From Eledone cirrhosa (Eukaryota): a DNA stretch of 64,000 nucleotides. Numbering within the stretch: the stretch's first letter is position 1; each line of letters begins with the position of its first letter. Made by a program: the position numbers and the translations under genes. The stretch covers positions 37,386,001 to 37,450,000 of the forward strand of contig OZ024754.1 of NCBI GenBank assembly GCA_964016885.1, read 5' to 3'. This document shows, one piece after another, positions 9,215 through 40,932 of this stretch. The notes beneath the pieces are model-generated. The model did not search any database. It saw only the letters and a program-made list of their open reading frames with translations, and was not told the DNA's origin.

Positions 9215-9454
9215 CATCTTAGGTATTTCCGAAGAAAAAGCAAAGGAAAAAAGAGTGCTCTATGTATAGAACAGAGCTATTTAATTAGAAAGTGAACAAC
9301 ACAATATATAACTACTTCATTACCAAAGGTTTCAGGACCCTAGACAATATTAATATATGTCTAGATCGTTCATCAGACTAGACATATGTTAATATTGTCT
9401 GGGATCCTGAAACCTTTGGTAATGGAGTAGCTATATATTGTGTTGTTAACTTTC

Positions 9455-9460
<6 letters not shown>
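9215..9460 (-). mobile_element. Fold-back element family D with hammerhead motif (~9312-9376, minus), between (TA)n tracts
   Basis: Inverted arms ~9282-9364 / 9379-9460. Minus strand reads CTGATGA-stem II-GAAACCtttGGTA-atgaag. Confidence 0.75.
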
Positions 9461-9513
<53 letters not shown>

Positions 9514-9515
<2 letters not shown>

Positions 9516-9748
9516 GAAAATATTTAACCCCGACGGCAGAGCTCAAGCCGTTTCGACGGCTATTTCTGGACTAAATTAGAATTTTTATTTAGTCCTGAAT
9601 TCTAATTTAGTCTAGAAATAGCTGTTGGAACGGCTTGAGCTCTGCCGTCGGGGTTAAATATTTTCCTATTACCCACTCTACTACCCTAAGTATTGAGTAC
9701 TCTGGTGCGTTATGGTCCATCTGGTTCCTTGCCACATCTCCTTCGTTA
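9514..9748 (+). mobile_element. Fold-back element family A in (TA)n
   Basis: Arms ~9515-9583 / 9597-9666 plus the shared tail ACCCACTCTACTACCCTAAGTATTGAGTAC..CCTTCGTTA. Confidence 0.8.
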
Positions 9749-10402
9749 TTATATATATATATATTATAAATTTCTATCTCTATCTCTTGCTGCACCCCCC
9801 CCCTCCCCCTCAGTCGTAATATAAGTTTACTGCAGATACATGCACATGGAGATTTGAATTCACTAGCAACAAATGAAAGTATTAGTCATCATCCAATTGG
9901 AGTCAGTTCATAACATCTACTAATCCATGACAATGACCTAGTCCATAGCCATTTATTTTGTTGCTAAATAATTGCAATGAGTAACTATAGAAAATGGTAA
10001 CAATGACAACACCCAACTGTCACAACCTGTTCTCTTTTCTGTAGTTATATTTAAGATATTTATATATCAAGGTTACATCTTAAAAGGTTATGGGGAAAGG
10101 TTATGGACAAAGTAGATCACAGGCTTTGTGGAGACTTTTATTTTTTTTAAACTATTTTTGTTTCTGTTATTCAACAATGGATCAGGCAGTAATATTTATT
10201 TTAAAATAGATATAACAAGAAAAAAAAAATAAAATAAAATAAAGAGAACTGGAATTGTGAACATTTTCTTTTCTCATCCTACACTGAATGTTGACTTTTA
10301 AATCTGCATGATTTTAACCTTAAACTAATTTATTATGGAAACATTTTATATGACCAGGAAACATCTAGATGATAATTAATTTCCTTTTTTATTCTATTTC
10401 AG

Positions 10403-10433
10403 GCTAAGGATCTCACGCCTAAACAACGTGAAG
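10403..10433 (+). CDS. Exon (calmodulin exon-2 equivalent) of a squidulin-like calmodulin-family EF-hand gene; AKDLTPKQRE(E)
   Basis: Polypyrimidine tract + ttcAG acceptor and GTAAG donor. 31 nt, phase 0/1, the same size and phase as exon 2 of metazoan calmodulin genes. Joins in frame to 41972. Confidence 0.85.
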
Positions 10434-11339
10434 GTAAGCTAAAAAAATTACGTTTTTTTTTCAAGAATCCTTTGTCCCTCGCCACCAAAACAAATCCTCT
10501 AAAATCTCCTGAACCTTTTGAAAGATGTTATATCATGTGACTGTGACATTCCACTAAATATAACAAAAATGTAAAATAGCTGTGTGAACTGAAATATTTT
10601 GTTATTCACATGAATAACATAGTTAGTGATAATAGTAACTGTTAGTGACTAACACAACGCGATTCATGACAAAGGTACTTATCAACTCGTACACATCATC
10701 ATCATCCTTTTGACTTCAGAGTCGGGCCAGATCAATACAGATCGAACCTTGAGCTGATCAATAGCAAAACGCGCGTCACCAATCAATAAACGTAATGAAA
10801 GCTTAACAAATTTTAAACCTTTATGATCTGAGTTTAAATCCTGCCGAGGTTAACTTTGCCTTTCATCCTTACGGGTTTGATAAAATAAAGTACCAGTCAT
10901 GCACTGGGTCTTGTGTCTATATAAGAAACCATTATATGTATTGCAATCTGTGGTCATATCACAGTTATCTCAAATTTGATCTTGAATCAGCAAGAAAAGT
11001 AGATATCCCTTCAACAGCCTCATGTAGAGTCAAGTAGAGTCAGTATAGCATACTATGACAAGGCTGCACTTTTGAATTACAGGTTCAGTCCATTTAAAGA
11101 TATCTTCCTATGGTTTGATCCCTTCTCATCCTCTTTGCTGAGGGTCAGGGACCATGGATAATTGCACCATTGCTCATCATCATCATCATCCTTTTAGGTC
11201 CGCTTTTCCCTGCTTGCAAGGGTGGGACGGTTCCTATTCAGCACAGCATCTCTCCATTCGTTATGGTCCTTCATCATCTATATGATAATGTATGTCCATG
11301 ATTCTCATCTGGAAAAAGTGATGTCAGTGTGTCTCGAAT

Positions 11340-11525
11340 GCTCAACTGACCATTACTTAGAAGCAGGCGCTGAGCTAGCCAACTGCAGGTATGAACCTCG
11401 CGAGTTGGAATGGCTCTTCCAGCGCATCTCCCTTACCATCCTCTGGGCAAATGCCTTCTCCATCCTGTCCGCTGGGGCTGTGGGGAGGCCAGCACATGGG
11501 ACCCCATTTGCTCACCATACGGATT
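11340..11525 (+). mobile_element. CRE-like (RLE-type) non-LTR retrotransposon 3' fragment
   Basis: EPRELEWLFQRISLTILWANAFSILS resembles the CRE C-terminal QRISVAIQRGNA.SIL motif; second copy at 26140-26365. Confidence 0.65.
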
Positions 11526-12769
11526 AATAGGCAAAGTTATAAACTATTGTAAATAAATGTTTGTGAATCATATAATAAACACAACATATATGCTACCCAG
11601 CTACATCTCATCTGACATCATCACAAGAATGAAGCCATTGACAACTTGAAAGGTGACTAAGGAATCCTTCATAATCTGGTTTTGAAATTAGTGTGATCCT
11701 TCTCTATTACTATAACATATATTTCACAGCAAAATTCCTATCAAAGACAATATAGACATTGACAATCACGTCAGATTAAATTAAATAAAAGAATCTCAAA
11801 CCTTTATCATCACCAAAATGTAGTCAAAATGGCACAAACTCAAAATGTTCTCCGTTTGACTGTTAAGCTTATGGCCAGGTTTCACTTTATATACCAAGTA
11901 CCATACATCCTGTACAAACAATGGCCTCATAACAATAACTTGTATGATGCTTACGAGATGGTCAGAAATTTGAGCATTGGCCAATTGCAGCTTCCTTAAT
12001 TATTTCTCATGGTAATTATTTATTAATAAAGACATAGTTAATTAAAAGAATATATGGTTAATTGTCATTATATATATTGGTTTAAATCTCGCCGAGATTA
12101 ACTTTGCCTTTCATCCTTACGGGGTCGGTAAAATAAAGTACCAGTAATGCACTGGGATAATTGCTGGCCTTGTGCCAATAGTAGAAACAATTATATATAT
12201 TAGAGTGCATAACCAGAGAAAAATATCAGGTGATTGTATGTATACACTTGGTGACCTACATGATAAACATCCAGTACACTCTGTAAAGTGGTTGGTGATA
12301 GGGAGGGCATCCAGTCATAGAAAGCTTTTGCCAAAAAAAAAAAAAAAGAAATGGGAGAGCCCTTCACTTGTGTCAAGGACATGACACCCTCCCTAGTGTT
12401 GGTGATCTACAAGATAAACACCCAGTACATTCTGTAAAGTGGTTGGTGATAGAAAAGGCATTCAGTCATAGAAAGCTTGCCAAACAAAGGGTCGAGAGTA
12501 CCCTTCACTTGTGTTAGAGACATGACAACCTCTCCAGTGCTGATGCAACAATAAAATGCACTCAGTAGAATGTTGAGCCATATATAAGTGAGATGCAGAG
12601 CCCTGGCCTCTCTGGGAGGTCAGTAGCCCCACTTCAGTACTGACATGATCTGTGAAGACAGGTCCAACACTTGTTAGCAGTGAAAGCAGACATTAAATGA
12701 TGATGATCATCATTTATGTATATGTATGGTCTTTGCATTTATTATTAGTACTACTATATATCATCATCA

Positions 12770-13113
12770 TCATCATCATCATCATTTTACGTCCGCTTTT
12801 CCCTGCTTGCAAGGGTGGAACAGGAACTGATTCTGGCTTGATTTCTACAGCTGGATGCCCTTCCTAACACCAACCTCATTTACAGTGAGTGCTGGGTTCT
12901 TTTTTGCCGTGGCACCTCCACGACCACTTTGCAGTGGAATGATAGGGACTGGAACCTCAGTCCCTATCATCTCATTTCTACAGCTGAGTAAACTGGAGCA
13001 ATGTGAAATAAAGTGTCTTGCTCAAGGAAACAAAACATCACCCGGTCTGAGAATTGAACTCACAACCTTTCGATTGCAAGGCCAATGCTCTAACCACTAA
13101 GCCATGTGCCTCC
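12770..13113 (-). mobile_element. tRNA-derived SINE with RTE tail
   Basis: Reverse complement of the 2256-2605 family. Confidence 0.85.
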
Positions 13114-13135
13114 ATATATATGTATGTATATATAT

Positions 13136-13752
13136 ACATCGTTTAAAATCCATTTTTCATGATAGCATGAGTAGGACGGGCTGTCCCATTGTGACAGATC
13201 AGGTTGGAGGATTGTGTTTCACTCACACACAACTGATTTTGGCTTGGTTTCTACAGCAGGATGCCCTTCCTAATGCCAACCACATTTCAGTGTGTGTTGG
13301 GTGCTTTTTGTCATGACACCTACACGACCACTTTACAGTGTGGACTGGACACTTTTGTTGTGACACCTACATGGCCACTTTACAGTGTGGACTGGGTGCT
13401 ATTTGTCATGACACCTACACGACCACTTTACAGTGTGGACTGGAAACTTTTGTCATGACACCTACACGACCACTTTACAGTGTGGACTGGGTGCTATTTC
13501 TCATGACACCTACACGACCACTTTACAGTGTGGACTGGGTGCTATTTGTCATGACACCTACACGACCACTTTACAGTGTGGACTGGACACTTTTGTTGCG
13601 ACACCTACATGGCCACTTTACAGTGTGGACTGGGTGCTATTTGTCATGACACCTACACGACCACTTAACAGTATGGACTGGGTCCTTTTTGTCGTGAGAC
13701 GTACATGACCACTTTACAGTGTGGACTGGACACTTTTGTCATGACACCTACA
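13136..13752 (-). mobile_element. RTE-related element with 47-48-bp minisatellite (~9 units)
   Basis: Unit ACGACCACTTTACAGTGTGGACTGGGTGCT.TTTGTCATGACACCTAC. Confidence 0.85.
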
Positions 13753-14876
13753 CTATATGTATGTATGCACTAAGGAGGTTTCCACATTTTTGACACTCCA
13801 CAAGAGTCATCACAACCCTTTGTTTGGCAGGTTTTCTATGGCCGGATGCCCTTCCTTTCACCAACCACCTTATATATTCTGAAGAGGTAGCAATTATATC
13901 AAAGTTTCACTTATTGTTCTGAAAGCTAGATGAGAATTTGGAGGCTTTATTGTCTCAACAAAGCACAAGAATATCTAAATAAGCAATCAACACACTATTA
14001 TATGTGTTTGTTTGTGTATTCTTTAGGGATTTAGGTTTTTAGGTTGTTTATCCTACAGACCGACTTGCATGCGTGTGTCTGTGTGTGTCTGTGTGTGTCT
14101 GTGTGTGTCTGCATGAGAAACATTTCAACAGTATCACTAGGAATGGTTATTAAATTAATTCTCTTACATCTATTCACTCTGCGGAAGTTTTTTGTTTCTT
14201 AAATATGTAGTTGTACGAAACATGGTGCAGGCAGGCATTATTGTAGAAAGCGCAGTAGAATAGAAAGCCAGACAAAAATAAATGCATGAAATAATATAAA
14301 AAAGAAATATTTATATGCTTCTTTAATCAATTATTATTTTGATGAACAATCAGTGGATTGATTTTTACATTGAATGTCCATTATGGAAGAAGCATAATCT
14401 GTACAGAATTTGATGAAATGCCAATGAACAACAAATGGAATTGAAAGGTGATTCATAAATGTTTGTCAGATCTGTTATTTTCAAAAGTAGTTCCACTTCT
14501 AAACAATAAAAATCAATTATAAACACAACAATGTTAGCATGTTTTCTGTAATATAGATTCTGTGTGTGTTTTACATAGCATTCAGATCCATATCATGAAG
14601 AACAGAGATCAATACTATTAACTCATTTGTTAGAGAATGTAGTCCATAATTTAGTTTGTTATCAACTATGTATATGGCTATGCGATAGCATTTGTAAAAC
14701 ATATTGAAGGTAGATTGAAAAAATATGTTAAATGCAAATATCTTACAAAATGTTTAAGATACTTTTCTTGGCAGTCATCTAGTGCATTGATGAGCTTATA
14801 AAACTATTTCTTTTTGCTAAAAGAAAAATCTCTCAATCAGCAGCCTTTTCTTTTTTGTTTATTTTTAAGCTTAATA

Positions 14877-15225
14877 TCATCATCATCACCATTTTCCATG
14901 TTAGTATGTATTAGACAAGTTGTCCTGTTGTGAGTAATGCTAGGTCAGGTGACCATGTCTTGCTCATAAAAAAACTGATTTTGACCTAGTTTCTAAAGCT
15001 GGATGCCCTTCCTAACGTCAACCACATTTACAGTGTGTGCTGGGTGCTTTTTGTTGTGATGCCTACATGACCACTTTACAGTGTAGACTGGGTGCTTTTT
15101 GTCATGGCACCTACATGACCACTTTACAGTGTGGACTGGGTGCTTTTTGTCATGGCACCTACACGACCACTTTACAGTGTGGACTGGGTGCTTTTTGTAA
15201 TGGCACCAACACGACCACTTTACTG
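14877..15225 (-). mobile_element. RTE-related element with 48-bp repeats (~4 units)
   Basis: Same motif family. Confidence 0.75.
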
Positions 15226-16676
15226 TAATAATAAATATTTATTAAATTTTGTTCAATTTGCAACTTCTGGGAGAATTATAGGGGTACTGTATTGACACAG
15301 CATTTCTAGGGCAATTTTAAACCTGGTGGAGCCCATCTCCTCTCCAGGTCTGAATACAGCAGATTTCTTCCAGAGAAGGATAGCGAGAGAGAGAGAGAGT
15401 GAGAGAATGGAATTGAGAAAGAGATATAGAGAACAAACCAACTCCAGTATATGACTGGTACTTTCTTTTATGGATCTCAAATGGGATTTGAGCTCACAGA
15501 GCAGAAAGTCAGAACAAATACTGCAAAGCATTCTATCCAACATTCTAATGACTTTCCCAATTTGTGACTGTATGGTACTTGATTTAACTCTTAACAAAAA
15601 GCATAATACATACTACCAAGACATACTGAATTGCAAGCGACAGTTGTAGTAATTTGTATTTTATTATATATTAATAATAACAACACAATTATATGATCAA
15701 AGAGTTAGTTGTCTAGATTCAGTGGTTTCACATAGACCTTTTTCATAATGAGTCAGTCATACAAAGTATTCATTGAACTCTACTTCAGCCTCGGTCAACA
15801 CTTGTTAAAAACAGAATTTATTATACCTAATATTAATAAAAAAAAATACTTGCGGTCAAAAGTCACAAAAACAAAACATCATATGATGGAATATAATAAA
15901 AGATGGTGGTATATGGTGATGTATGGTGGTGTATGGTGGTTGTGTAAAGTGAAGAAAGCTAGAGAGAGTTTGATTTCTGATGAAAGTCATATACATTCAC
16001 TTTCATTTTATTACAAATTTGTTTTTGTATGTATGTATGTATGTATGTATGTATGTATGTATGTATGTATGTATGTATGTATGTATGTATGTATGTATGT
16101 ATCTATGTATATATGTATGTATGTATGTATGAGTGTGTGTGTGTGTGTTTGTGTATATATGTACATTTATATTTGAGTATATGTGTATGTATCTATTTAT
16201 CAATGTAAGTATGCATACGTACACACACACATATATATATATATACATACATACACACACACACACATATATACATATATGTACGTATGGGTTTTATCGA
16301 ATACTAATAATAATATTCGATTCGTTTGTAAACAAATGGAGCAATTTGAGGCCGTGCCGTGCCGGGTGACCGATTGTCACCTGTTTGTATCAGCTGTGCT
16401 AGGGTGAGAAATAAAATTCTAATTTTATTATCTATTTATCACATCTTTTTCTTGGTTGCATTAAATGCCAAGTACATGCTTGCATATGCCCTACTTCTGT
16501 TGATGGCACCTACATCTCACCACACATCTACATCTACATTTCTCCAACTTCTTTTAAGGGCGTATACAATTCTCTATCCTCAAAATGAATAAATTTGTTG
16601 GGTTAAAGATGCACTCTCTTTTGTGACATATATCATTCAACATCTCTCTTTCATTTTACTGGTACATGTAAGTCAT

Positions 16677-17417: not shown

Positions 17418-20400
17418 CTGTGTTTGACCCTTTACATTACTCTATATATATATATACTGTGGTTGACCCTTTACATTACTCTATATATATATATATACTG
17501 TGGTTGACCCTTTACATTACTCTATATATATACTGTGGTTGACCCTTTACATTACTCTATATATATATACTGTGGTTGACCCTTTACATTACTCTATATA
17601 TATATACTGTGGTTGACCCTTTACATTACTCTCTATATATACTGTGGTTGACCCTTTACATTACTCTATATATATACTGTGGTTGACTCTTTACATTACT
17701 CTATATATATATACTGTGTTTGACCCTTTACATTACTCTCTCTATATATATATACTGTGTTTGACCCTTTACATTACTCTATATATATATACTGTGGTTG
17801 ACCCTTTACATTACTCTATATATATATACTGTGTTTGACCCTTTACATTACTCTATATATATATACTGTGGTTGACCCTTTACATTACTCTATATATATA
17901 TATATACTGTGTTTGACCCTTTACATTACTCTATATATATATACTGTGTTTGACCCTTTACATTACTCTATATATATATATACTGTGGTTGACCCTTTAC
18001 ATTACTCTATATATATATACTGTGGTTGACCCTTTACATTACTCTATATATATATACTGTGGTTGACCCTTTACATTACTCTATATATATACTGTGTTTG
18101 ACCCTTTACATTACTCTATATATATATACTGTGGTTGACCCTTTACATTACTCTATATATATACTGTGGTTGACCCTTTACATTACTCTATATATATATA
18201 CTGTGTTTGACCCTTTACATTACTCTATATATATATACTGTGTTTGACCCTTTACATTACTCTATATATATACTGTGGTTGACCCTTTACATTACTCTAT
18301 ATATATATACTGTGGTTGACCCTTTACATTACTCTATATATATATACTGTGGTTGACCCTTTACATTACTCTATATATATACTGTGTTTGACCCTTTACA
18401 TTACTCTATATATATACTGTGTTTGACTCTTTACATTACTCTATATATATATACTGTGGTTGACCCTTTACATTACTCTATATATATACTGTGGTTGACC
18501 CTTTACATTACTCTATATATATATATACTGTGGTTGACCCTTTACATTACTCTATATATATACTGTGGTTGACCCTTTACATTACTCTATATATATATAT
18601 ACTGTGGTTGACCCTTTACATTACTCTATATACTGTGGTTGACCCTTTACATTACTCTATATATATATATACTGTGTTTGACCCTTTACATTATATATAT
18701 ATACTGTGGTTGACCCTTTACATTACTCTATATATATATATATACTGTGTTTGACCCTTTACATTACTCTATATATATATATATATATACTGTGGTTGAC
18801 CCTTTACATTACTCTATATATATATACTGTGTTTGACCCTTTACATTACTCTATATATATATATATACTGTGGTTGACTCTTTACATAATATATATATAC
18901 TGTGGTTGACCCTTTACATTACTCTATATATATATACTGTGTTTGACCCTTTACATTACTCTATATATATATACTGTGGTTGACTCTTTACATTATATAT
19001 ATATATATACTGTGGTTGACCCTTTACATTACTCTATATATATATACTGTGTTTGACCCTTTACATTATATATATATACTGTGGTTGACCCTTTACATTA
19101 CTCTATATATATATATATACTGTGGTTGACCCTTTACATTACTCTATATATATACTGTGGTTGACCCTTTACATTACTCTATATATATATACTGTGGTTG
19201 ACCCTTTACATTACTCTATATATATATACTGTGGTTGACCCTTTACATTACTCTCTATATATACTGTGGTTGACCCTTTACATTACTCTATATATATACT
19301 GTGGTTGACTCTTTACATTACTCTATATATATATACTGTGTTTGACCCTTTACATTACTCTCTCTATATATATATACTGTGTTTGACCCTTTACATTACT
19401 CTATATATATATACTGTGGTTGACCCTTTACATTACTCTATATATATATATATATACTGTGTTTGACCCTTTACATTACTCTATATATATATACTGTGGT
19501 TGACCCTTTACATTACTCTATATATATATATATATACTGTGTTTGACCCTTTACATTACTCTATATATATATACTGTGTTTGACCCTTTACATTACTCTA
19601 TATATATATACTGTGGTTGACCCTTTACATTACTCTATATATATATACTGTGGTTGACCCTTTACATTACTCTATATATATATACTGTGGTTGACCCTTT
19701 ACATTACTCTATATATATACTGTGTTTGACCCTTTACATTACTCTATATATATATACTGTGGTTGACCCTTTACATTACTCTATATATATACTGTGGTTG
19801 ACCCTTTACATTACTCTATATATATATACTGTGTTTGACCCTTTACATTACTCTATATATATATACTGTGTTTGACCCTTTACATTACTCTATATATATA
19901 CTGTGGTTGACCCTTTACATTACTCTATATATATATACTGTGGTTGACCCTTTACATTACTCTATATATATATACTGTGGTTGACCCTTTACATTACTCT
20001 ATATATATACTGTGTTTGACCCTTTACATTACTCTATATATATACTGTGTTTGACTCTTTACATTACTCTATATATATATACTGTGGTTGACCCTTTACA
20101 TTACTCTATATATATACTGTGGTTGACCCTTTACATTACTCTATATATATATATACTGTGGTTGACCCTTTACATTACTCTATATATATACTGTGGTTGA
20201 CCCTTTACATTACTCTATATATATATATACTGTGGTTGACCCTTTACATTACTCTATATACTGTGGTTGACCCTTTACATTACTCTATATATATATATAC
20301 TGTGTTTGACCCTTTACATTATATATATATACTGTGGTTGACCCTTTACATTACTCTATATATATATATATATATACTGTGTTTGACTCTTTACATTACT

Positions 20401-23400
20401 CTATATATATATATATATATATACTGTGGTTGACCCTTTACATTACTCTATATATATATACTGTGTTTGACCCTTTACATTACTCTATATATATATATAT
20501 ACTGTGGTTGACTCTTTACATAATATATATATACTGTGGTTGACCCTTTACATTACTCTATATATATATACTGTGTTTGACCCTTTACATTACTCTATAT
20601 ATATATACTGTGGTTGACTCTTTACATTATATATATATATATACTGTGGTTGACCCTTTACATTACTCTATATATATATACTGTGTTTGACCCTTTACAT
20701 TATATATATATACTGTGGTTGACCCTTTACATTACTCTATATATATATATATACTGTGTTTGACCCTTTACATTACTCTATATATATATACTGTGGTTGA
20801 CCCTTTACATTACTCTATATATATACTGTGTTTGACCCTTTACATTACTCTATATATATATATACTGTGGTTGACCCTTTACATTACTCTATATACTGTG
20901 GTTGACCCTTTACATTACTCTATATATATATATACTGTGTTTGACCCTTTACATTATATATATATACTGTGGTTGACCCTTTACATTACTCTATATATAT
21001 ATATATACTGTGTTTGACCCTTTACATTACTCTATATATATATACTGTGGTTGACCCTTTACATTACTCTATATATATACTGTGTTTGACCCTTTACATT
21101 ACTCTATATATATATATACTGTGGTTGACCCTTTACATTACTCTATATACTGTGGTTGACCCTTTACATTACTCTATATATATACTGTGTTTGACCCTTT
21201 ACATTATATATATATACTGTGGTTGACCCTTTACATTACTCTATATATATATATATACTGTGTTTGACCCTTTACATTACTCTATATATATACTGTGGTT
21301 GACCCTTTACATTACTCTATATATATATATACTGTGGTTGACCCTTTACATTACTCTATATATATATACTGTGGTTGACCCTTTACATTACTCTCTATAT
21401 ATACTGTGGTTGACCCTTTACATTACTCTATATATATACTGTGGTTGACTCTTTACATTACTCTATATATATATACTGTGTTTGACCCTTTACATTACTC
21501 TCTCTATATATATATATACTGTGTTTGACCCTTTACATTACTCTATATATATATACTGTGGTTGACCCTTTACATTACTCTATATATATATATATATACT
21601 GTGTTTGACCCTTTACATTACTCTATATATATATACTGTGGTTGACCCTTTACATTACTCTATATATATATATATACTGTGTTTGACCCTTTACATTACT
21701 CTATATATATATACTGTGTTTGACCCTTTACATTACTCTATATATATATACTGTGGTTGACCCTTTACATTACTCTATATATATATACTGTGGTTGACCC
21801 TTTACATTACTCTATATATATATACTGTGGTTGACCCTTTACATTACTCTATATATATACTGTGTTTGACCCTTTACATTACTCTATATATATATACTGT
21901 GGTTGACCCTTTACATTACTCTATATATATACTGTGGTTGACCCTTTACATTACTCTATATATATATACTGTGTTTGACCCTTTACATTACTCTATATAT
22001 ATATACTGTGTTTGACCCTTTACATTACTCTATATATATACTGTGGTTGACCCTTTACATTACTCTATATATATATACTGTGGTTGACCCTTTACATTAC
22101 TCTATATATATATACTGTGGTTGACCCTTTACATTACTCTATATATATACTGTGTTTGACCCTTTACATTACTCTATATATATACTGTGTTTGACTCTTT
22201 ACATTACTCTATATATATATACTGTGGTTGACCCTTTACATTACTCTATATATATACTGTGGTTGACCCTTTACATTACTCTATATATATATATACTGTG
22301 GTTGACCCTTTACATTACTCTATATATATACTGTGGTTGACCCTTTACATTACTCTATATATATATATACTGTGGTTAACCCTTTACATTACTCTATATA
22401 CTGTGGTTGACCCTTTACATTACTCTATATATATATATACTGTGTTTGACCCTTTACATTATATATATATACTGTGGTTGACCCTTTACATTACTCTATA
22501 TATATATATATACTGTGTTTGACCCTTTACATTACTCTATATATATATATATATATACTGTGGTTGACCCTTTACATTACTCTATATATATATACTGTGT
22601 TTGACCCTTTACATTACTCTATATATATATATATACTGTGGTTGACTCTTTACATAATATATATATACTGTGGTTGACCCTTTACATTACTCTATATATA
22701 TATACTGTGTTTGACCCTTTACATTACTCTATATATATATACTGTGGTTGACTCTTTACATTATATATATATATATACTGTGGTTGACCCTTTACATTAC
22801 TCTATATATATATACTGTGTTTGACCCTTTACATTATATATATATACTGTGGTTGACCCTTTACATTACTCTATATATATATATATACTGTGTTTGACCC
22901 TTTACATTACTCTATATATATATACTGTGGTTGACCCTTTACATTACTCTATATATATACTGTGTTTGACCCTTTACATTACTCTATATATATATATACT
23001 GTGGTTGACCCTTTACATTACTCTATATACTGTGGTTGACCCTTTACATTACTCTATATATATATATACTGTGTTTGACCCTTTACATTATATATATATA
23101 CTGTGGTTGACCCTTTACATTACTCTATATATATATATATATACTGTGTTTGACCCTTTACATTACTCTATATATATATATATACTGTGGTTGACTCTTT
23201 ACATAATATATATATACTGTGGTTGACCCTTTACATTACTCTATATATATATACTGTGTTTGACCCTTTACATTACTCTATATATATATACTGTGGTTGA
23301 CTCTTTACATTATATATATATATATACTGTGGTTGACCCTTTACATTACTCTATATATATATACTGTGGTTGACCCTTTACATTACTCTATATATATATA

Positions 23401-23418
23401 CTGTGGTTGACCCTTTAC

Positions 23419-23421
<3 letters not shown>
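17418..23421. repeat. 6-kb satellite, unit CTGTG(G/T)TTGACCCTTTACATTACTC(TA)n (~30-45 bp), with higher-order structure
   Basis: Direct inspection; identical ORFs recur at offsets of ~1.62-1.63 kb and ~2.13-2.14 kb. Confidence 0.97.
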
Positions 23422-23457
<36 letters not shown>

Positions 23458-24604: not shown

Positions 24605-25130
24605 TAATAATAATAATTGTTTCTACTTTTGGCACAAGGCCAGCAATTACCCAGTGCATTACTGGTACTTTATTTTATCGACCCCGCAAGGATGAAAAAG
24701 CAATGTTAACCTCGACGGGATTTGAACTCAGAATGGCAAGGGCCATAACTCTATGCGTCAAAGCATGGCATCCGACACTCAACCAATACTGCCAATCCAC
24801 CGCAATTTCCAGCAAAGAGTTACGGCCCTTGCCATTCTGAGTTCAAATCCCGTCGAGGTTAACTTTGCTTTTTCATCCTTGCGGGGTCGATAAATAATAA
24901 TAATAATAATAATGGTTTCTTATATAGGCACAAGGCCAGCATATTTTGGGGGAGGGGGAAGTCGATTAAATCGACCCAAGCGCATGACTGGTACTTTCTT
25001 TTATCGACCCCGTAAGGATGAAAGGCAAAGTTAACCTCGGCGGGATTTGAACTCAGAATGGCAAGGGCCGTAACTCTATGCGTCAAAGCATGGCGTCCGA
25101 CCCTCTACCGATACTGCCAATCCACTGCCC
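24605..25130 (-). mobile_element. Cluster of Nin-like SINEs (two minus copies, one short plus fragment ~24818-24893)
   Basis: Same core and tail motifs. Confidence 0.78.
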
Positions 25131-28420: not shown

Positions 28421-28451
<31 letters not shown>

Positions 28452-28997
28452 TGTAAAAGTTCTATTTAAATTGTTGGGATACAACAAGCAAATATTTTTA
28501 TAACTGATATAAAGCACTCAACAAATATTTGGAGTAAAAATACGATATATTAACAAATGGAAACTATATTTATAAAACCATATTTATTTCATTATACATA
28601 TTTCAAGGACACCAAGTTAAATTATGGTGTGCTTTCATCAGATAAAATATAATATAGATCAGTTTTATAAATAAATATTGACATACCCTTAAAGAATGTA
28701 ACCATTGCTGTTGGAAGCTCCCGGATAGTGGAGTTGTAGCTTTAATTATATTATTAGTATTGGATATTTTTATTTTTAAAATAAGCCGTTGGGTTACGGA
28801 GAAAGAGAAAGATAGAGAAGGAGAGAAAGAGAGAATGGTTGCATTCTTTAAGGGTATGTCAATATTTATTTATAAAACTGATCTATATTATATTTTATCT
28901 GATGAAAGCACATCATAATTTAACTTGGTGTCCTTGAAATATGTATAATGAAATAAATATGATTTTATAAATATAGTTTCCATTTGTTAATATCGTA
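28452..28997. mobile_element. Family E fold-back element with two divergent hammerhead motifs (28585-28649 minus; 28891-28955 plus)
   Basis: ~160-bp inverted arms; plus copy tattttat-CTGATGA-stem II-GAAA-T atgt A-TA-atgaaata; (TA)n on both sides. Confidence 0.8.
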
Positions 28998-29863
28998 TAT
29001 ATATATATATATATTTATGCATTAGTACTTAGATTTGGGTGTGAAATACTGATTTATACTATGCAGGGTTCAAAACCTTGAATGATGAGTTTGAGAAGTC
29101 TATCTCTCAATTATCCCAATCCTACCATGTAATACTGTAACAATATAATTACTAACCTCCATCAGACTGGTAAATACATCTAGAGGTCTTGATATTTTCT
29201 ATGGATTTAGTTCATGTGATTGTTTTCACTGAAGTAATTATGAAGCTATTCAAATCTTACAATGGAATGCTGTCGGCACATCAGGATTCAATTAAGCTAG
29301 CTACGAACCAAATCAAAGTGTTATTTGGCGCTGAAGTGGCAAAAGGTGGTCTTTTTTTTTTTTTTTGAAGTGTTTGTTTATTCTATGCTTTGTGTTTTTG
29401 AATAAATGATTAAGTAATGCTGGTCCTTGTTTGTTTGGTTGTATTAGTTATTGGTCCTGGGAGGAAATTTGGCACAAAGCTGACACCATCCATTACAGAA
29501 TGGCAACAAATACTTAGTTTAGAGAACAAGCTTAATGCTGGTTTTCAACAATTGAGCTTTCAATTGTTATACATGGAATTGCCCAGGGAAGCAGCAACAG
29601 CAGCAACAGCAGAAACAGCAATAGCAGCAGCAACAACCCATTCGCTATATATGTCTGCAGTATTTAAGTTACACAAACTGAGATTCATTATCATACTCAT
29701 CATCATTTAACAATGAAGGTCAATTTTGTCATTCACCCTTTCAGGTTGAGAAATAAATAACCAGTCAACTACTATGGTTAATTTATCTCACTCTCCCTCC
29801 TCCTCTCTCTATTGATGTGTCTATATATCTATCTATCTATCTATCTATCAAACTATCAATCCA

Positions 29864-31210: not shown

Positions 31211-31247
<37 letters not shown>

Positions 31248-31941
31248 GTTTATCCCAGGTTCAATTAGGGGTAACCATAGTAAGTAAGGTACTCAATATA
31301 GCAGAGTATAAATATTTAATATATATATATATATATAAAGCTCATAGTGCATGTGTGTATATGTTTGTATGTGTATGTATGTAAGCACATATGTGTGTGT
31401 GTGTGTGTGTAGAGAGAGAGAGAGATAGAAAGCGAGAGAAAGAAAGAGAGAGAGAGAGAGAAAGAGAGAGAGCGAGAGAGAGAGCGAGAGAAAGAGAGAG
31501 AGAGAGAAAGAGAGAGAGAGAGTCCACAGTGTTGAGACCGGAGGGACTATTTATCATTTTCGAATAAATTTTGGTTTTACATTTAATTTTTTAAATTTTT
31601 TTTTTTGTCAAATTTCAGGTTGATTTATATTTTTGATTTTGTAGAGGTTGGGGGTTGTTTTTAGTTATTTTAAGAATTTTTTTTTTTTGTCAAATTAAAA
31701 CATTTACATGGTATTAAATTCTTCTAAAATAATTAATTTTTTCAAAAATGTTTCTATAATAATTTGGTCTTTTTAAGAATTTTCCTGAAAAAATCTTAGA
31801 CTTTTTTTTTTAAATTTGAATTGTTAAAAAAATAGAATTATAAAAAATATAGATTAAATGAACACTTGAAACACTCAACAAAAACTAATTGCAAGTGAAT
31901 AAAGTGAGTTTATCAGCTACTATATATATTAAGGGTACATT

Positions 31942-33249: not shown

Positions 33250-33282
<33 letters not shown>

Positions 33283-33405: not shown

Positions 33406-33467
<62 letters not shown>

Positions 33468-33800: not shown

Positions 33801-33994
33801 TAGGAACAAGTATGACCCCGACGGCAGTGCTCAAGCCGTTTCGACGGCTAATTCAGTCCAGAATTAGCCGTCGAAACGGCTTGAGCTTTGCCGTCGGGGT
33901 TACACTTGTTCCTATTACCCACTCTACTACCCTAAGTATTGAGTACTTTGGTGCGTTATGGTCCATCTGGTTCCTTACCACATTTCCTTCGTTA
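33801..33994 (+). mobile_element. Fold-back element family A with hammerhead 3' half (GAAACGGC..GCCGTC|GGGGT)
   Basis: Arms 33801-33854 / 33861-33914, shared tail, TA-rich flanks. Confidence 0.8.
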
Positions 33995-34015
33995 AATATA
34001 TATATATAGAGAGAA

Positions 34016-34058
<43 letters not shown>

Positions 34059-34398
34059 GAGAGAGGTAAAGTCCATACATACAAATAAAAGGACACAATT
34101 TGGATTAAGAAGAGTGACTGAACAAAAGGTGACTGACTAGAGACAGCTTGAGAGGAGAGAGACTGCGAGGACATTACCTGACTGGAGAGGCCATGAGATC
34201 AACCAACTCCAAGGAACAGAAGCCATTATATTAATAGTAGAGAGAGGAAGGAGGAGTGTATTGGTGAGACATTTCATATATATATACATATATATACATA
34301 TATATACATATATATATATATAAAGTCTCTCACCAATACACTCAGAGCACAGTATATATTTATATGTATATATATGTATATGTATATATATATATATT

Positions 34399-34485
34399 CA
34401 GGTTGTCTCTAAAAAATGTATACATACTTTGAATATCTGTACAAACAATATTTATCAGAATGGTGTATACATTTTAGGGGACACC

Positions 34486-34488
<3 letters not shown>
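34399..34488. mobile_element. Tc1/mariner-type MITE
   Basis: Imperfect TIR CAGG(G/T)TGTC.C..TAAAA..TGTATAC; TA-rich flanks. Confidence 0.6.
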
Positions 34489-34559
<71 letters not shown>

Positions 34560-34611
34560 ATATATATATATAATATGTGTGTGTATATATATACATACAT
34601 ATATATATGTG

Positions 34612-34686
<75 letters not shown>

Positions 34687-34697
34687 CTGTGTATGTA

Positions 34698-34755
<58 letters not shown>

Positions 34756-34779
34756 ATGTCTGTATATATATATATATAA

Positions 34780-34836
<57 letters not shown>

Positions 34837-35354
34837 ATATAATGTGTGTGTGTATGCAAATATTGCAATATTGATATTGATATTTCCAAGTGATTGATTA
34901 CTTTGATCACATTGATCAGATCTAATTATATATCATTTGATTGAATTAGAAGATAATAATCGAATATCATATTTTCTTCTCGTGGGAAGAGAGTGAGAAT
35001 TAATTTCGAAATAATTAACATCACAGATTAAGGGACCAAATGTTGGGGAGGGGCTGCCTTAGTAGAGTCGGTAGAGCATCAGATAGCATTCATTGCAGTG
35101 TTTGTTACATTTTTCTGAGCTCTGAGTTCAAATCCCACCAAGGTCAACTTTGCTTTTCGTCCTTTCAGGGTCAAGATGTAAAGTACTAGTTCAAATATTA
35201 TGGTTGATCAGTCATACTCCTCTCTCCTTATCTATCAATATTGATCTATCAATCTATCTCCCTATCAATCTATAGGTCTATATATATCCTAATTGAACCT
35301 GAACCGATAAGGTCTGGTTTCTTGGATATGTCACCATTTATAAAACAAATTTTG

Positions 35355-35415
35355 TATTTTATCTGATGAGGGCGTACCAAAATTTTGGTACCCTTGAAAT
35401 ATATATAATAAAATA
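35355..35415 (+). ncRNA. Minimal type I hammerhead motif (family E-related element, ~35290-35550)
   Basis: Perfect 8-bp stem I tattttat/ataaaata; CTGATGA; stem II gtaccaaa/tttggtac; GAAA-T ATAT A-TA with palindromic stem III. Confidence 0.8.
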
Positions 35416-35559
35416 AATATGGTTTTATAAATATAGTTTCCATTTATTTAATATCATTGATATTATACTCCAGAAAAACTGTAGAGTGCTTCGAATCTGT
35501 TATAAATAAATTTGTTGAATAATCAACAAATTAAATATCTCTTTACTTTATATATGGTA

Positions 35560-35750
35560 ATAATAATTGTTTCTACTTTTGGCACAAGGCCAGCAATTAC
35601 CCAGTGCATTACTGGTACTTTATTTTATCGACCCCGTAAGGATGAAAGGCAAAGTTAACCTCGGTGGGATTTGAACTCAGAATGGCAAGGGCCGTAACTC
35701 TATGCATCAAAGCATGGCATCCAACCCTCTACCGATACTGCCAATTCACC
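35560..35750 (-). mobile_element. Nin-like SINE
   Basis: Same family motifs. Confidence 0.78.
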
Positions 35751-36840
35751 TAATAATAAATGTGAAGAGGGCTCGACAAGGATAATATATATAATCGATA
35801 TATATCGATACATATAAAACCATAGAGCAAATATTTATTAAAATAACAGATTAAAGTTTAAGCAAAGAATCGCTGCTTTCACCCTTAACGGGATCTTTCA
35901 CACACACATATCACACAGACACACTTTCACACACACATATCACACAGACACATCACACATAGACATCACACATACACATATACATATTCTCACATTCACA
36001 TATCAAACACACACACACATTCTCACATTCACATATCAAACACACATACACATTCTCAAACACACATATCAAACACACACACATATCAAACACACACACA
36101 CATCAAACACACACACACATTCTCACACACACATATCACACAGACACTTCTGAATGCAAGTTTCCTATGCAACTCTCTCACACACACATATCAAACACAC
36201 ACACATTACACATATCAAACACACATATCACACACACACATATCAAACACACACACAGACACACACATATCACACACACACATATCAAACACACACACAG
36301 ACACACACATATCACACACACACATATCAAACACACACACTCACACACATATTAAACACACACATTCTCAAGCACATATCACACACACATATCAAACTCA
36401 CACATACACACACACCACACAAGTCTCCTAACCAGAGAGCCATTCCATGTGTCCATATTGGAGGAATTGTCTATATGATGTACACAATACTATTACCTTA
36501 CATATAAGACAAGCATGCATGGTTTAACAGGAAGTAACTGACTTATATATCATTATGGTTTATTGTTGTACATCAAGTAGAGTTCAAAGGAAGAGCATTC
36601 AAACTGAAATTGTATGGTTAGTAATGGTGGAATTCAATAGAAACAGTCAATTAACTATTATATATGTGACTAAAAAATGTATATTTATCAAACACACTCC
36701 TTTTCTTATATTTTCCTTCTTGTCCCACCTTCTACCACACCCCTCAAAATTCCCTTCTGACTTATTACCATGGTAATTTTAATTCACATGGATTTTACGG
36801 CTTTCGAAATACACATACCCACTTTTCTTTTTCATATATT

Positions 36841-36901
<61 letters not shown>

Positions 36902-36986
36902 ATATTAATAAATTTGAAGACTAAAATCCAAAGAGGGCTCGATAAGGAAAAATATATATCAAATATATAAGAACCGTAGAGCAAAT

Positions 36987-37037
36987 AGTTTCAGAAGATC
37001 CTGTTAAGGGTGAAAGCAGCGATTCTTTGCTTAAACT
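36987..37037 (+). ncRNA. Degenerate hammerhead motif (family F; related copy 35760-35899 minus)
   Basis: agttt-CAGAAGA (one core mismatch)-tcctgttaagggt-GAAA-GCA..TGC-TT-aaact. Confidence 0.55.
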
Positions 37038-37300
37038 TTAATCTGTTATTTTAATAAATATATATATATATAGGTTTGTTTTAATTGATTTATTATTTTA
37101 AATCGACACAGGCAAACTGTATTAATTTAATTAGTATTTTTCAATCTAGCTAACTTGGTTGTTTGCAATACAAACACTTATATACTTGTATTAGTGTTTA
37201 TCCCTATCATATATTCATTTGTATTAGACGGCTCAGAAATATCCCTTTCTTTGAGCTATTTAATTGTAAAAGACTGTTTGAGTTTATAACTCTATATATA

Positions 37301-37364
<64 letters not shown>

Positions 37365-38032
37365 GTAATCTGAGTTTTTCGGATATCAATAATAATATTC
37401 AATTCGTTTGCAATTATGCAAAACAAGCCTCATTTTTAAAGCCATGTCTGTAAAATGAGCCCCTCATTCAGCCATGTAGAGCGAAAATTTATATATATAT
37501 ATCTTTATCAGACCAATGTGATAACACATTGGTCTGGCAAACCAAAAATGTGAGTTCGTGTCCCATGTACATCAATACTCATCCTTTTTTTCCATTCAAA
37601 GGTTTTTTTTTTAAATCCCAACTTACAGACTAATTCTATTTAGTCAAATACGGCATAAGCACATATTACTACCTAATTTTTAAATTTGCTAACTGTTTCT
37701 AAACAAAGCTTGCTTTGTGTCTCCATATATATATATATATATATATCACCTGTTTCAGAGGTATGGCAAAAAGCCAAAGATGGAACTGCTGTGTGTTTGC
37801 ACCATCTGCTTAAAATATCTGTCAAATCTTCTTCAAATTGTACTCTACTGTATTAGAATAAGAAGGACACGTTAAACATATCAATCATAGTTATTTACAA
37901 AAATATATTATGATCATCATGATTTGAACACCTTTTGATCATAGACCTGCTCAATCAGCATTGATCAGGAGTAAAAATCAACTTCAACAACAAGCCAGTA
38001 AAGGTCACAGATACAGCTCCTATCCTCTAACT

Positions 38033-38230
38033 CAGGCATGTTAAACATGTGGCCCTTTACAAGCACCCCTGTGGCCTGCACAAAGGTTTTTACAGTGCAA
38101 GCATGTTTTATCTTCGTAATATAAAATAAAAACAATTGTTGTAATGTGCGCAATTAGTTGTCATGTGTGGCCCTCAGACAATACATGTGACTCATGTGGC
38201 CCTCGGGAGACCCTCTGTTTGATATGCCCG
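38033..38230. mobile_element. hAT (Charlie-like) MITE
   Basis: TIR CAGGCATGTTAAAC / GTTTGATATGCCCG; exact 8-bp TSD CTCTAACT. Confidence 0.82.
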
Positions 38231-39369
38231 CTCTAACTAACCCCTAAAATATCCTACTCAATGTAAGTAAAGAGAGAGAAGAACAGATTTCCTTTATCGT
38301 TATTGTTCATCCTGGCCATTGTTTCTGCTCTTTGATTTTTGCTGTCAATGGCAATGGCAATAATTGGCAGCAACATTTATTTTCGTTTAGTTTTATCAAA
38401 TTCATATCTGCCTTCTCCAATAAATAGGCTGAAATTATTTAATAAAATGTGAATTATTTAGCAGCAGAGAATTGAAGCATATATGCATTAACCTTGTATG
38501 TACATCTCTTATATATTGTATACAATCTACAATCATGTGTATTGAACATAATGCACTTGTCTATAGAATATCTGTCTATATTATCATGTGTTACTACAGT
38601 TATATTTTTGAATAGCTTTTCTGTCATAATAGACAAGCAGACAACAAGATATTACAGATAATACATCAACCTACTTTCGCTTTTTAAAATTCTCTTATTT
38701 CTCTGTGGATATCAGAATTTTATCATTTTAAGGACAAAAACTGTATTGTGATTGTATATGTGTCCACATTTCATTCCATGTTCTATATTCTAGCTCATTT
38801 TAGAGATCAAAGATACAGGAAATCATTATTATTGTGCCATTTCTAAATGGAGACTTCTATCAATGTTTCATCAGAAATTTGATGAAGAAATTTTTTTATT
38901 TTTTCCACTTGTTTTCCTTCGATAATACATAAAATATAATATTCTGAACACACAAATTAAAATCGAAAGCTAATGGGATTTAAATCATGTACTTTGCTTC
39001 ATTTTGGTGTTTTATAGCGTTTCCTGCTTGTTCATTACCATACTATTGATTTCTATTGGGTGTTTAAATATTTCATATAAAACAGTGTTAGTTTGATAGC
39101 TTGATGGTAGGGTGTTATGGCAGATAGTTGCAGAATTCAAGATCTGACCCTTTTAACCCTTAGATTTAACTATTTAGGGGTGACAGCCATTAACATAGCA
39201 TTAGACTTTAATTAGGAGGACATGTTGTCCTGGTAGAGTCTATTATATTTCAAGCTATACCCCATGGAAAAGTGGAATTTAGCAGCTAAAATAATAGAAC
39301 AATCCTGAGATAATGTCAGTTTACTAGAACAGGACATTTGGATTTAAATGGCCTTCACTTGAATATAGT

Positions 39370-39809
39370 TTAATCCTTTAGCCTTTAAACTGGCCGTATC
39401 CAGTGAGAATACTCTCACCTCTTTTTGTTCAAACAGGCTGTAATCGGCCACTCATACTGATGTTAAGGTATTGTTCTCAAAATAGATATCACAATTTCGT
39501 AAATTCGATATTATGTGAGATAATTATGTAAGATAAATCCTTTACCACAAAAATACTTTAGTAACTATAGAGTAAAGTAAAGTAAATGCTAAAGGGTTAA
39601 ACCAGCTATATCTGGCAAAAATACTCTCACCTCTTTCTGTTCAAACTGGCTATAACTGGTTGCTCATACTGACATTAAGGTATTGTTCTCAAAATAAATA
39701 AATCTCAAAATAACAGATTTGATATTATGTGAGATAATTATGTGAGATAAAGTGTTCACCATGAAAATATGATGGTAAATATAGAGTAATGTAAATGGTA
39801 AAGGGCTAA
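39370..39809 (+). mobile_element. Two tandem piggyBac-like MITEs
   Basis: 39370-39600 complete; 39601-39809 lacks the left TIR. Confidence 0.75.
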
Positions 39810-40134
39810 AACCATCACTTGCATGTAGGGTGTTTTTAGCATAGTTCACTTTGTTGTAACATACAGACCAGTGTTACAGTCCATTGTAACATACAATATA
39901 TTTGTGTTATATATACAATAAATATCTAAGGTTAGCTTTGCCTTCCATCCTTACAGGGTCGATAAAATAAAATACCTGTCATACACTAGAGTCAATTTAA
40001 TCGACTTTCCCCTACCCCAAAATTGTTGGCCTTGTACCTAAATCACAAACCCTTATATGTATATAATATATTTGTATTATGTGTATACAATATATATCTG
40101 TATTATATCATCATCATCATCATATATATATATA

Positions 40135-40470
40135 CATGGCTTAGTGGTTAGAGCATTGGCCTTACAATCGAAAGGTTGTGAGTTCAATTCTCAGACTGGG
40201 TGATGTGTTGTTTCCTTGAGCAAGACACTTTATTTCACATTGCTCCAGTTTACTCAGCTGTAGAAATGAGATGATAGGGACTGGGGTCCCTATCATTCCA
40301 CTGCAAAGTGGTCGTGGAGGTGCCACGGCAAAAAAGCACCCAGCACTCACTGTAAATGCGGTTGGTGTTAGGAAGGGCATCCAGCTGTAGAAATCTAGCC
40401 AGAATCAGTTCCCGTCCCACCCTTGCTAGCAAGGAAAAGTGGACGTAAAATGATGATGATGATGATGATG
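40135..40470 (+). mobile_element. tRNA-derived SINE with RTE tail
   Basis: Near-identical to 2256-2605. Confidence 0.85.
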
Positions 40471-40471
40471 A

Positions 40472-40686
40472 TAGAACACTGGAAGGTAATATCTATAGTG
40501 GTGGAGCACTCAGTCCATGGGATGAGTTAGGTAGAAGTGGTAACACAACAGTTAGTTCACCATACCGAGAACAATTGTTTCACCTTAGCGGGTCCTCAGC
40601 GGGTCCTCAGCGGGTCCATTATGAGCTGAAGATTCACTAAGGTGAAACAATTGTTCTCGGTATGGTGAACTAACTGTTGTGTAACC

Positions 40687-40690
<4 letters not shown>
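40472..40690. mobile_element. Family C fold-back element with hammerhead motifs on both strands
   Basis: Arms ~40535-40588 / 40636-40690. Plus: tgag-CTGAAGA-ttcactaaggt-GAAA-C AATT G-TT-ctcg. Minus: CTGAGGA-cccgctaaggt-GAAACAATTGTT. Confidence 0.75.
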
Positions 40691-40732
<42 letters not shown>

Positions 40733-40733
<1 letters not shown>

Positions 40734-40932
40734 GTAGGTCCCGGGTTGAGTCGGGGATAACCACAGTAAGTAAGGTACTCAATACATGGCAGAGTAAAAT
40801 TTTTTTATTTTATAGAAGGAGCTTCTACAGGACTAGTACTGTTTCATTCAGATGAAATCTTCAGGAGCTTCCTGAAGATTTCATCTGAATGAAACAGTAC
40901 TAATCCTGTAGAAGCTCCTTCTATAAAATAAA
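40733..40932. mobile_element. Family B fold-back element in (TA)n
   Basis: Near-perfect palindrome ~40804-40932 centred at 40868, plus a tail; the tail alone also occurs at ~31253-31310. Confidence 0.8.
40863..40919 (+). ncRNA. Type I hammerhead ribozyme motif, complete
   Basis: 9-bp stem I aggagcttc/gaagctcct; CTGAAGA; stem II ttca/tgaa; GAAA-CAG..CTG-TA; predicted cleavage after GTA 40908-40910. Confidence 0.85.

Follow-up and report, generated by a model that had tools for sequence, protein, structure and literature searches.

Penelope-like elements have long been noted to insert head to head with a tail on one side only, an arrangement that is still unexplained. The adjacent inverted, 5′-truncated copy and the one-sided tail have been published for these elements (Craig et al. 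2021, PMC8557442). In the available part of that study, the Hydra clade combines both traits with (TA)n targets, hammerhead ribozyme cores of the CTGANGAT..TGAA type and partial tandems, and no structure is described in its tails or leaders. For the Poseidon element PAc of Anolis, the available text of Frangieh et al. (2024, PMC11167929) reports that cutting and extension take place on both target strands, that two internal starts of the reverse transcriptase (RT) form the boundaries of the tail, that RNA lying 3′ of these starts, to +172, is required, and that the protein is a predicted dimer. Here we describe a bulged hairpin in the tails of six families (A–F) of short insertions in a stretch of 64,000 nucleotides (nt) of Eledone cirrhosa (assembly GCA_964016885.1, contig OZ024754.1, positions 37,386,001 to 37,450,000), hereafter the window. 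Its sequence, covarying structure, position, duplication and association with the Hydra clade are established by sequence comparison. The hairpin is a putative, and on balance probable, RNA docking site for the Hydra-type RT–endonuclease, which it would position at two internal RT starts, thus producing the one-sided tail.

The window is AT-rich and animal-like (34.7% GC), with abundant (TA)n arrays, minisatellites and tRNA-derived repeats; its short interspersed elements appear octopus-like. Families A–F are short fold-back inserts in (TA)n, each made of two 5′-truncated copies placed head to head with their 3′ ends outward. One short end and one long, tailed end were seen in all 10 inverted pairs, the long arm exceeding the short one by about 55–95 nt, as against the 30–40 bp given for tails in the available text on the Hydra clade (PMC8557442). 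(TA)n abuts 19 of the 20 ends, the exception being the long end of family C, which lies at (ATC)n. Family A is abundant, since 22,663 of the 12.47 million reads of one run map to 160 nt of it.

A first-pass annotation of this DNA had attributed hammerheads to all six families. A Type I hammerhead in the pseudo-long terminal repeat (pLTR) is a trait of endonuclease-containing (EN+) Penelope-like elements, and four of the six families (B, C, D and E) yielded an intact CTGANGA..GAAA core; as read from alignments, A keeps just the 3′ half and the core of F is damaged. By eye, the core is of the CTGANGAT..TGAA type tabulated for Hydra elements in B, C, D, E and partly F, which is a shared trait and not a published diagnostic. 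No hammerhead family appeared among the 150 of 165 Rfam matches listed for the window, which were (TA)n-driven microRNA noise and tRNA-like only. No open reading frame (ORF) or remnant of an RT or endonuclease was detected in the window by tblastn and an 82-sequence profile; this is expected because the copies are 5′-truncated and at most about 370 nt long, and it sets them apart from the Hydra clade elements of PMC8557442, as described in its available text. From their target, ribozyme type and motif, families A–F are most likely 3′ ends of Hydra-clade Penelope-like elements. Two other origins were rejected: a non-LTR retrozyme, as the window contains no hammerhead-bearing tandem array and the copies are inverted pairs or solos; and a Naiad element, since four of the 54 Naiad 3′ ends, inspected by eye, had neither likeness nor hairpin, and families B–E have canonical cores.

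The elements are of a known kind, and the hairpin signal appears to be undescribed. Neither the hairpin nor its duplication was found in the full-text literature on element tails, structure, hosts and bulged hairpins (subscription papers, figures, Repbase and Dfam excluded), nor is the hairpin described in the available parts of PMC11167929, PMC8557442, bioRxiv 10.64898/2026.07.22.740005, PMC7229834, PMC3846280, PMC4209133 and PMC2377424. The bioRxiv preprint, in its available part, likewise deals with Type I hammerheads in pLTRs and with short non-coding derivatives; it concerns the ribozyme or tandem circles, whereas the hairpin described here is separate, 43–64 nt downstream of the ribozyme, and is carried by inverted pairs, not tandem monomers.

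Form and covariation of the hairpin

The first-pass annotation had reported a 4-bp RCTC..GAGY helix, and the eight pairs it cited were all found where it placed them. For B, C, D, E1, F1 and F2, the first 4-mer listed is in fact the 3′ strand of the helix, the hammerhead-sense strand being the minus strand in these and the plus strand in A and E2. The ACTC/GAGT pair assigned to family A is present in three of its four full tails, the copy at 52488 having ACTG. More generally, this helix is the base stem of a larger feature, whose inner stem, bulge, 3′ RCTNT flank, clade and second copy in the 5′ leader had been missed. On the ribozyme-sense strand, RCTC is followed by an inner stem of 3 bp that closes a loop of 1 to more than 40 nt, then by a 2-nt 3′ bulge (usually TT or TC), GAGY and RCTNT; family C is a 1-nt-bulge variant. 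The flank is conserved, over 16 representatives, as R in 15, C in 16, T in 15, any base, and T in 15.

As the annotation had cautioned, the bare helix carries no weight alone, since RCTC..GAGY occurs 64 times in the window and 64.9 ± 13 times in 20 block-wise dinucleotide shuffles. The full descriptor, which was fitted on the window families themselves, has 11 matches in the window, every one of them in an element tail, against 2.05 ± 1.5 in shuffles. Position had been put forward as the actual evidence, and it holds as such: a helix 3–8 nt into the tail was obtained in 0.02–0.84% of 5000 shuffles per tail (six families of six), with the reservation that the test is post hoc, the tails having been chosen after the motif was seen, and that the families share ancestry. 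The background frequency of the bare helix, the fitting of the descriptor and the modest folding z-scores would all be compatible with shared ancestry or chance and no present function. This explanation nevertheless has hardly any probability left: although the families cannot be aligned around the hairpin, its sequence, structure, register and spacing are found again in elements from coral, sea cucumber, copepod and metagenomes, and the blind metagenome test reported below largely refutes it.

MAFFT misaligned the hairpins because their loop lengths differ, and pairs were counted by anchoring on the stems. In 16 representatives, 45 of the 48 inner-stem cells are paired, where the permutation mean is 32.0 and none of 20000 permutations reaches the observed value. 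Five pair types occur at the second and third positions of this stem, and the passage from CAA/TTG in E1 to CAG/CTG in E2 is a double-sided change. The 2-nt-bulge register alone works, with 33 of 36 cells paired in 12 representatives, compared with 17, 6, 9 and 15 for bulges of 0, 1, 3 and 4 nt. The A-T to G-C switch of the closing pair, which the annotation had called compensatory, behaves as such (A-T in 4 and G-C in 8 of 12 representatives, a result reached by 40 of 20000 permutations). The lower stem is Watson-Crick in 19 of 19 instances, which follows from how they were selected. Among the variants listed for family A reads, those in the loop reach 3.5, 10.8 and 15.9% of X1 depth and a T>C change in the bulge 9.1%, and one stem site is affected, at 0.7%.

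The inner stem also informs on the strand that folds. It contains 7 G-U and no A-C pairs in the 16 representatives (8 and 2 in the 19 instances), and this excess points to folding on the RNA-sense strand, as judged from sequence. The proposed role in RT or endonuclease recognition is thereby narrowed: an RNA-level signal on the RT side is favoured, and a DNA endonuclease site is disfavoured. It is indeed unlikely that the conserved unit is duplex DNA, either a symmetric GAGYRCTC sequence recognised by the GIY-YIG endonuclease or an internal-promoter element in duplicate. GAGYRCTC is strand-symmetric and occurs with all four YR centres, the Penelope tail of D. virilis is needed for endonuclease recognition of plasmids according to earlier work reported in the available text of Frangieh et al. 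(PMC11167929), and Penelope is described, in the part of the literature available, as possessing an internal promoter. However, only 7 of 16 representatives retain the final C of the palindrome, against 15 of 16 for the next T, and a DNA site leaves unexplained an inner stem that is variable in sequence yet paired, with G-U and without A-C. The chances are slighter still that the hairpin acts in cDNA or antisense RNA, through cDNA joining or self-priming. A pure Watson-Crick lower stem folds on both strands, and self-priming in antisense was once proposed for Penelope palindromes, as far as the available source goes; this would fit neither the inner-pair counts given above nor the short arms, which are without any hairpin.

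A pseudoknot linking the loop to sequence further downstream, noticed by eye in A and B, was dropped, as it is not common to C–F. A single CCCTAA unit, complementary to the telomere repeat common in animals, is present in the family A loop (33929–33935); as reads vary at these positions, the match is probably due to chance.

Insertion ends, related elements and 5′ leaders

When short and long arms are aligned, the short end lies at −5 relative to the helix in A (four of four copies), −8 in B, −7 in C, −4 in E, −2 in F and 0 to −4 in D, where the offset is blurred by TA microhomology. The distance of about 3–8 nt beyond the end of the inverted copy, as first proposed, thus stands for A, B, C and E, and is smaller in F (2 nt) and D (0–4 nt). 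The family E copy at 4802 gives no information in this respect, its alignment having run through (TA)n to +2; E2 and F1 have no adjacent inverted arm, and homology alone indicates where their hairpin lies relative to a short end. The helix lies 43 nt from the ribozyme GAAA in A, 45 in B, 49 in C, 64 in E, 47 in F and 51 in D, so that the short end tracks the hairpin (0–8 nt) while the ribozyme spacing runs from 43 to 64 nt, family E accounting for most of the spread. Raw reads confirm the short end of family A: in run X11, 3091 of them pass into (AT)n at 33915. At about 33995, nearly all reads change over to (TA)n. Runs X4 and X8 contributed one and no aligned records, respectively. The long ends of seven window tails lie 50 (A), 42 (B), 44 (B2), about 35 (C), about 42 (D), 38 (F2) and 64 nt (E1) after GAGY, in the range where a second hairpin begins in the leaders described below. 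Between the two conserved hairpins, and closely preceding the long end, there is often a small hairpin with no sequence conservation (window tails A–F; metagenome loci L009, L010, L011 and L038).

In a blind test, metagenomes were scanned with the ribozyme core alone, nothing of the tail being used, and the descriptor was fixed beforehand. The scan gave 32 loci in 17 clusters. The bulged hairpin was present in 8 of these loci, 7 of them in the strictest form (4 of 17 clusters), 48–53 nt after GAAAC, against backgrounds of 0.12 and 0.03 in shuffles and of 41 and 9 among 7781 flanking windows, for the bulged and strictest forms, respectively. Inspected by eye, the 24 negatives comprise 10 copies that terminate ahead of the hairpin, 1 broken within it, 2 that end with the contig or a short end, 5 that look decayed or shifted, 4 in which nothing is seen and 2 that probably matched by chance, among prokaryotic-type ORFs. 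Viral contigs yielded four loci for a GAAAC-plus-motif pattern, with no ribozyme core in the stretches inspected and no relatives of the Hydra protein.

Of the six Hydra-clade consensi that were new in Craig et al. (2021, PMC8557442), four also have the hairpin, as a comparison of their ends showed. It stands in the 3′ tail of Hydra-2_Amil and Hydra-2_Ajap, 51 and 46 nt after GAAAC. Hydra-1_Ajap opens with one copy, a second following 38 nt later. Hydra-1_Crog has one copy in its tail, in which pair 3 is a T-T mismatch, and a second, different one 6 nt into its 5′ end, with the double-sided change GCCC/GGGC. The six 8-mers of the 3′ half were found at 22 places in the Craig supplement as a whole, namely three Hydra termini with the hairpin, one Naiad near-match and 18 places without it. 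The Naiad match is a near-complete hairpin with a G-U closing pair in a non-coding-looking part of one consensus, due to chance or to a wider distribution. The annotation had suggested a conserved cis signal, and the same distance to the ribozyme in unrelated hosts, together with the published consensi, bears this out. It had also named what would speak against the motif, that is, absence or random position in further families, or background frequency in shuffled tails; these searches and shuffles have now been run, and they do not refute it.

A duplication of the hairpin was found in the leaders. Locus L055 is a contiguous tandem junction, in which the end of the endonuclease is followed by the hammerhead (758), hairpin 1 (837), hairpin 2 (899, after an interval of 42 nt) and the ATG (943); the tail is therefore the front of the 5′ leader of the next unit. 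The search that recovered L038 used protein alone; two hairpins separated by 44 nt precede the ATG of this locus, and in all three leaders readable throughout (L055, L038 and Hydra-1_Ajap) the second hairpin comes 38–44 nt after the first. L055, L057, L070 and L071 had been found by a pattern containing RCYC, which makes them half-circular as evidence for hairpin 1; its 3′ half and hairpin 2 of L055 are not affected by this.

In its own ORF, a Hydra-clade element is defined by RWK, DKT and a CxCX5C linker, with no CCHH. Translations of the motif-bearing loci L010, L026, L038 and L055 show the Hydra-type traits RWK, DKT, CxCX5C, a C-terminal GIY-YIG and a short unit: L026 and L010 have DKT together with the CxCX5C linker, and L038 and L055 have RWK and DKT, RWK being found only where the N-terminus is present. 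A total of 2629 homologues were recovered, mostly of about 700 amino acids on contigs of 2.3–2.9 kb, one of which is named from Hydra vulgaris (52%). A Pfam scan of five Hydra-type ORF pieces gave nothing meaningful. Six Hydra-type contigs (L037, L038, L055, L057, L070 and L071) lie in two bacterial metagenome-assembled genomes, and the L055 protein is named 'hypothetical protein [bacterium]'; host contamination is the probable reason.

The position of the second hairpin, which ends 25–28 nt before the start codon in L055 and L038, would suit a role in ribonucleoprotein assembly (cis-preference) or in translation control near the AUG. The ends would then be set otherwise, by U/A-rich stretches pairing with the (TA)n primer or by the small hairpin before the long end. 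The bases just 5′ of the hairpin are mostly A/T-rich, short ends scatter in one metagenome host, and small hairpins, several of them weak, are predicted before the long end in seven of seven folded window tails. Such a role is possible, if rather doubtful, as the short end stays within 0–8 nt of the hairpin though the ribozyme distance varies by 21 nt, and family A ends at a single sharp position despite other T/A stretches.

A putative docking site for the RT–endonuclease

The docking mechanism may be outlined as follows. The elements would be 5′-truncated 3′ ends of Penelope-like elements inserted head to head in (TA)n. The RT–GIY-YIG protein would bind the hairpin through the invariant CTC/GAG stem, the bulged U and the single-stranded RCUNU flank, and reverse transcription would start a few bases 5′ of the bound hairpin, which, being held by the protein, would not itself be copied. 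Both strands would be cut in (TA)n. One 3′-OH would be extended from a start before hairpin 1, giving the short arm with no tail, and the other from a start further 3′, probably before hairpin 2, giving the long arm with hairpin 1 as its tail. The two cDNAs would finally be joined head to head, often within palindromic ribozyme stems. Protein binding, the setting of the start sites and the use of a dimer are the parts that we infer. The start of second-strand synthesis, another role suggested for the motif, loses ground to first-strand starts, the tail ends of Poseidon being two internal RT starts in the available text of Frangieh et al. (2024, PMC11167929).

The arm junctions lie in or just 5′ of the hammerhead core, often within the long palindromic stem II (9330–9460, 33801–33900, 40578–40690, 40842–40932 and 52488–52689). 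The inverted arms contain sequence 5′ of the cleavage site, hence the templates were uncleaved. Most pairs overlap up to the ribozyme, which calls for strand displacement or two RNAs; the long arm of F2 is tail only and abuts the short arm, which fits one RNA serving both starts. F1 (35741–35897) and F2 (36900–37061) share 98% identity in the pLTR part and only about 73% in the tails, a contrast suggesting that the tailed arm of F2 may stem from the RNA of another subfamily than its short arm.

Several observations weigh against the docking mechanism or limit its reach. As the window has no ORF, the clade of A–F and their partner enzyme are known indirectly. The permutation controls ignore relatedness. 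Folding energy is modest, six sense-strand stretches having z from −0.2 to −2.8, and a different predicted fold is preferred in family A, so the structure would need protein for stability. Of the 32 metagenome loci, 24 are negative and 19 belong to a single assembly; in one host, the copies stopping before the hairpin scatter at −6, −9, −9, −10, −11, −17, −19, −25 and −33, an offset of +15 for L029 having been dropped as a spurious local alignment (that copy stops just after the core). Two of the six published Hydra consensi (Amil-1 and Obim-1) have no recognisable hairpin. Regarding the second start, the search for a family that combines a mapped long end with a contiguous hairpin 2 gave none, the antisense copy at L036 being truncated. 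The sole hint within one family is Hydra-1_Crog, with 6 nt, if the 3′ and 5′ ends of its consensus are contiguous. The tail end of Hydra-2_Amil matches, by eye, the L038 leader about 21 nt before the clear second copy, at a spot which carries a minimal extra ACTC/GAGT.

A more detailed version, that of a bipartite leader signal, can be put forward tentatively, the odds being somewhat against it. Each hairpin would be bound by one subunit of a dimeric RT–endonuclease, which would fix the RT start about 5 nt 5′ of it, and the tail length would be the hairpin spacing. With one subunit per side of the double-strand cut, each insertion would receive one short and one tailed end. A homodimer prediction for residues 1–470 of the Hydra-type protein P0001, made without an alignment, speaks neither for nor against a dimer (score 0.01).

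A comparable arrangement may exist in PAc, which belongs to another clade and differs in sequence. In the part of its template available (PMC11167929), a 3′-bulged hairpin can be seen by eye at +121 to +147 (5-bp lower stem, 3-nt bulge, 4-bp upper stem), 2–9 nt 3′ of the mapped start at +111–118; this is a lead, not a test. The available text names an AC-rich stem-loop at the start site, places the protein-binding motif only within 172 nt and describes no duplicated, sequence-conserved hairpin. If the bipartite version is true, the PAc hairpin would make it a general rule for the RTs of Penelope-like elements, the sister group of telomerase, and the hairpin would be a portable RNA address for an RT start inside any template. 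If the hairpin alone sets the internal start, this bears on template choice by telomerase-related RTs and on engineered RNA-templated insertion. A short motif kept in sequence and structure, doubled and located beside both ends, also provides exact mutations and spacing shifts for testing. Besides, the hairpin is a marker for classifying and delimiting ORF-less Hydra-type fragments, which are abundant in this organism.

Small bulged stem-loops beside an RT start are found in hepadnavirus epsilon and among the template-flanking elements of telomerase RNA. The resemblance is an analogy only, the copied template here being 5′ of the hairpin and not in the bulge.

Features of the window

Table 1. 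Hairpins, insertions and related copies of families A–F in the window (strands in hammerhead-sense orientation).
Feature	Position	Strand	Description
Family A hairpin	33921..33949	+	ACTC/GAGT, inner TAC/GTA, TT bulge, RCTNT flank; 5 nt past short end at 33915
Family A head-to-head insertion in (TA)n	33801..33994	short arm -, long tailed arm +	3′ half of hammerhead only
Family A hairpin, second copy	9675..9703	+	within element 9515-9748
Family A hairpin, third copy	54900..54928	-	within element ~54855-55024
Family A insertion	52488..52689		hairpin mismatch, ACTG for ACTC
Family A minimal pair	3868..3955		long arm is the last 37 nt of the tail, without hairpin
Family B hairpin	40772..40795	-	ACTC/GAGT, TGC/GTA, TT bulge; 8 nt past short end
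Family B insertion	40735..40932		hammerhead cores 40842-40864 (-), 40872-40894 (+)
Family B second tail (B2) hairpin	31286..31307	-	tail-only copy, starts just 5′ of hairpin
Family C hairpin	40503..40527	-	variant, ACTCA/TGAGT, 1-nt C bulge; 7 nt past short end
Family C insertion	40472..40690		between (ATC)n and (TA)n; hammerhead cores 40578-40599 (-), 40626-40647 (+)
Family D hairpin	9252..9277	-	GCTC/GAGC, TGT/ACA, TA bulge; 0-4 nt past short end
Family D insertion	9213..9460		hammerhead core 9330-9376 (-)
Family D short-ended relative	1918-2019	+	
Family E1 hairpin	28511..28535	-	ACTC/GAGT, CAA/TTG, TT bulge; 4 nt past short end
Family E insertion	28452..28998		hammerhead cores 28601-28641 (-), 28899-28939 (+)
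Family E short-ended copy	4802-4970	-	
Family E2 hairpin	35467..35492	+	inner CAG/CTG; hammerhead core 35363-35399
Family F1 hairpin	35766..35828	-	GCTC/GAGC, TC bulge, long AT-rich apical stem
Family F2 hairpin	36932..36982	-	long arm tail only (36900-36987), abuts short arm (~36988-37061, +)

Two families stand together in a single (TA)n tract on two occasions, D with A (9181–9750) and C with B (40472–40932), which is consistent with repeated targeting of the same microsatellite. Fold-back pairs unrelated to the hammerhead families are also present: ends of repeats resembling short interspersed elements (SINEs) are paired in this way at 3541–3659 and 24674–24889, one pair being centred on (ATG)n/(CAT)n. 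At 55372–55520, a 150-nt insert with inverted ends of about 50 nt (88%) looks like a miniature inverted-repeat transposable element or another fold-back, and no hammerhead core was found in it. The (TA)n run is also part of a 37-nt unit repeated in a 6-kb array (17418–23436), and several 47–50-nt minisatellites elsewhere in the window have one SINE-like unit in common.

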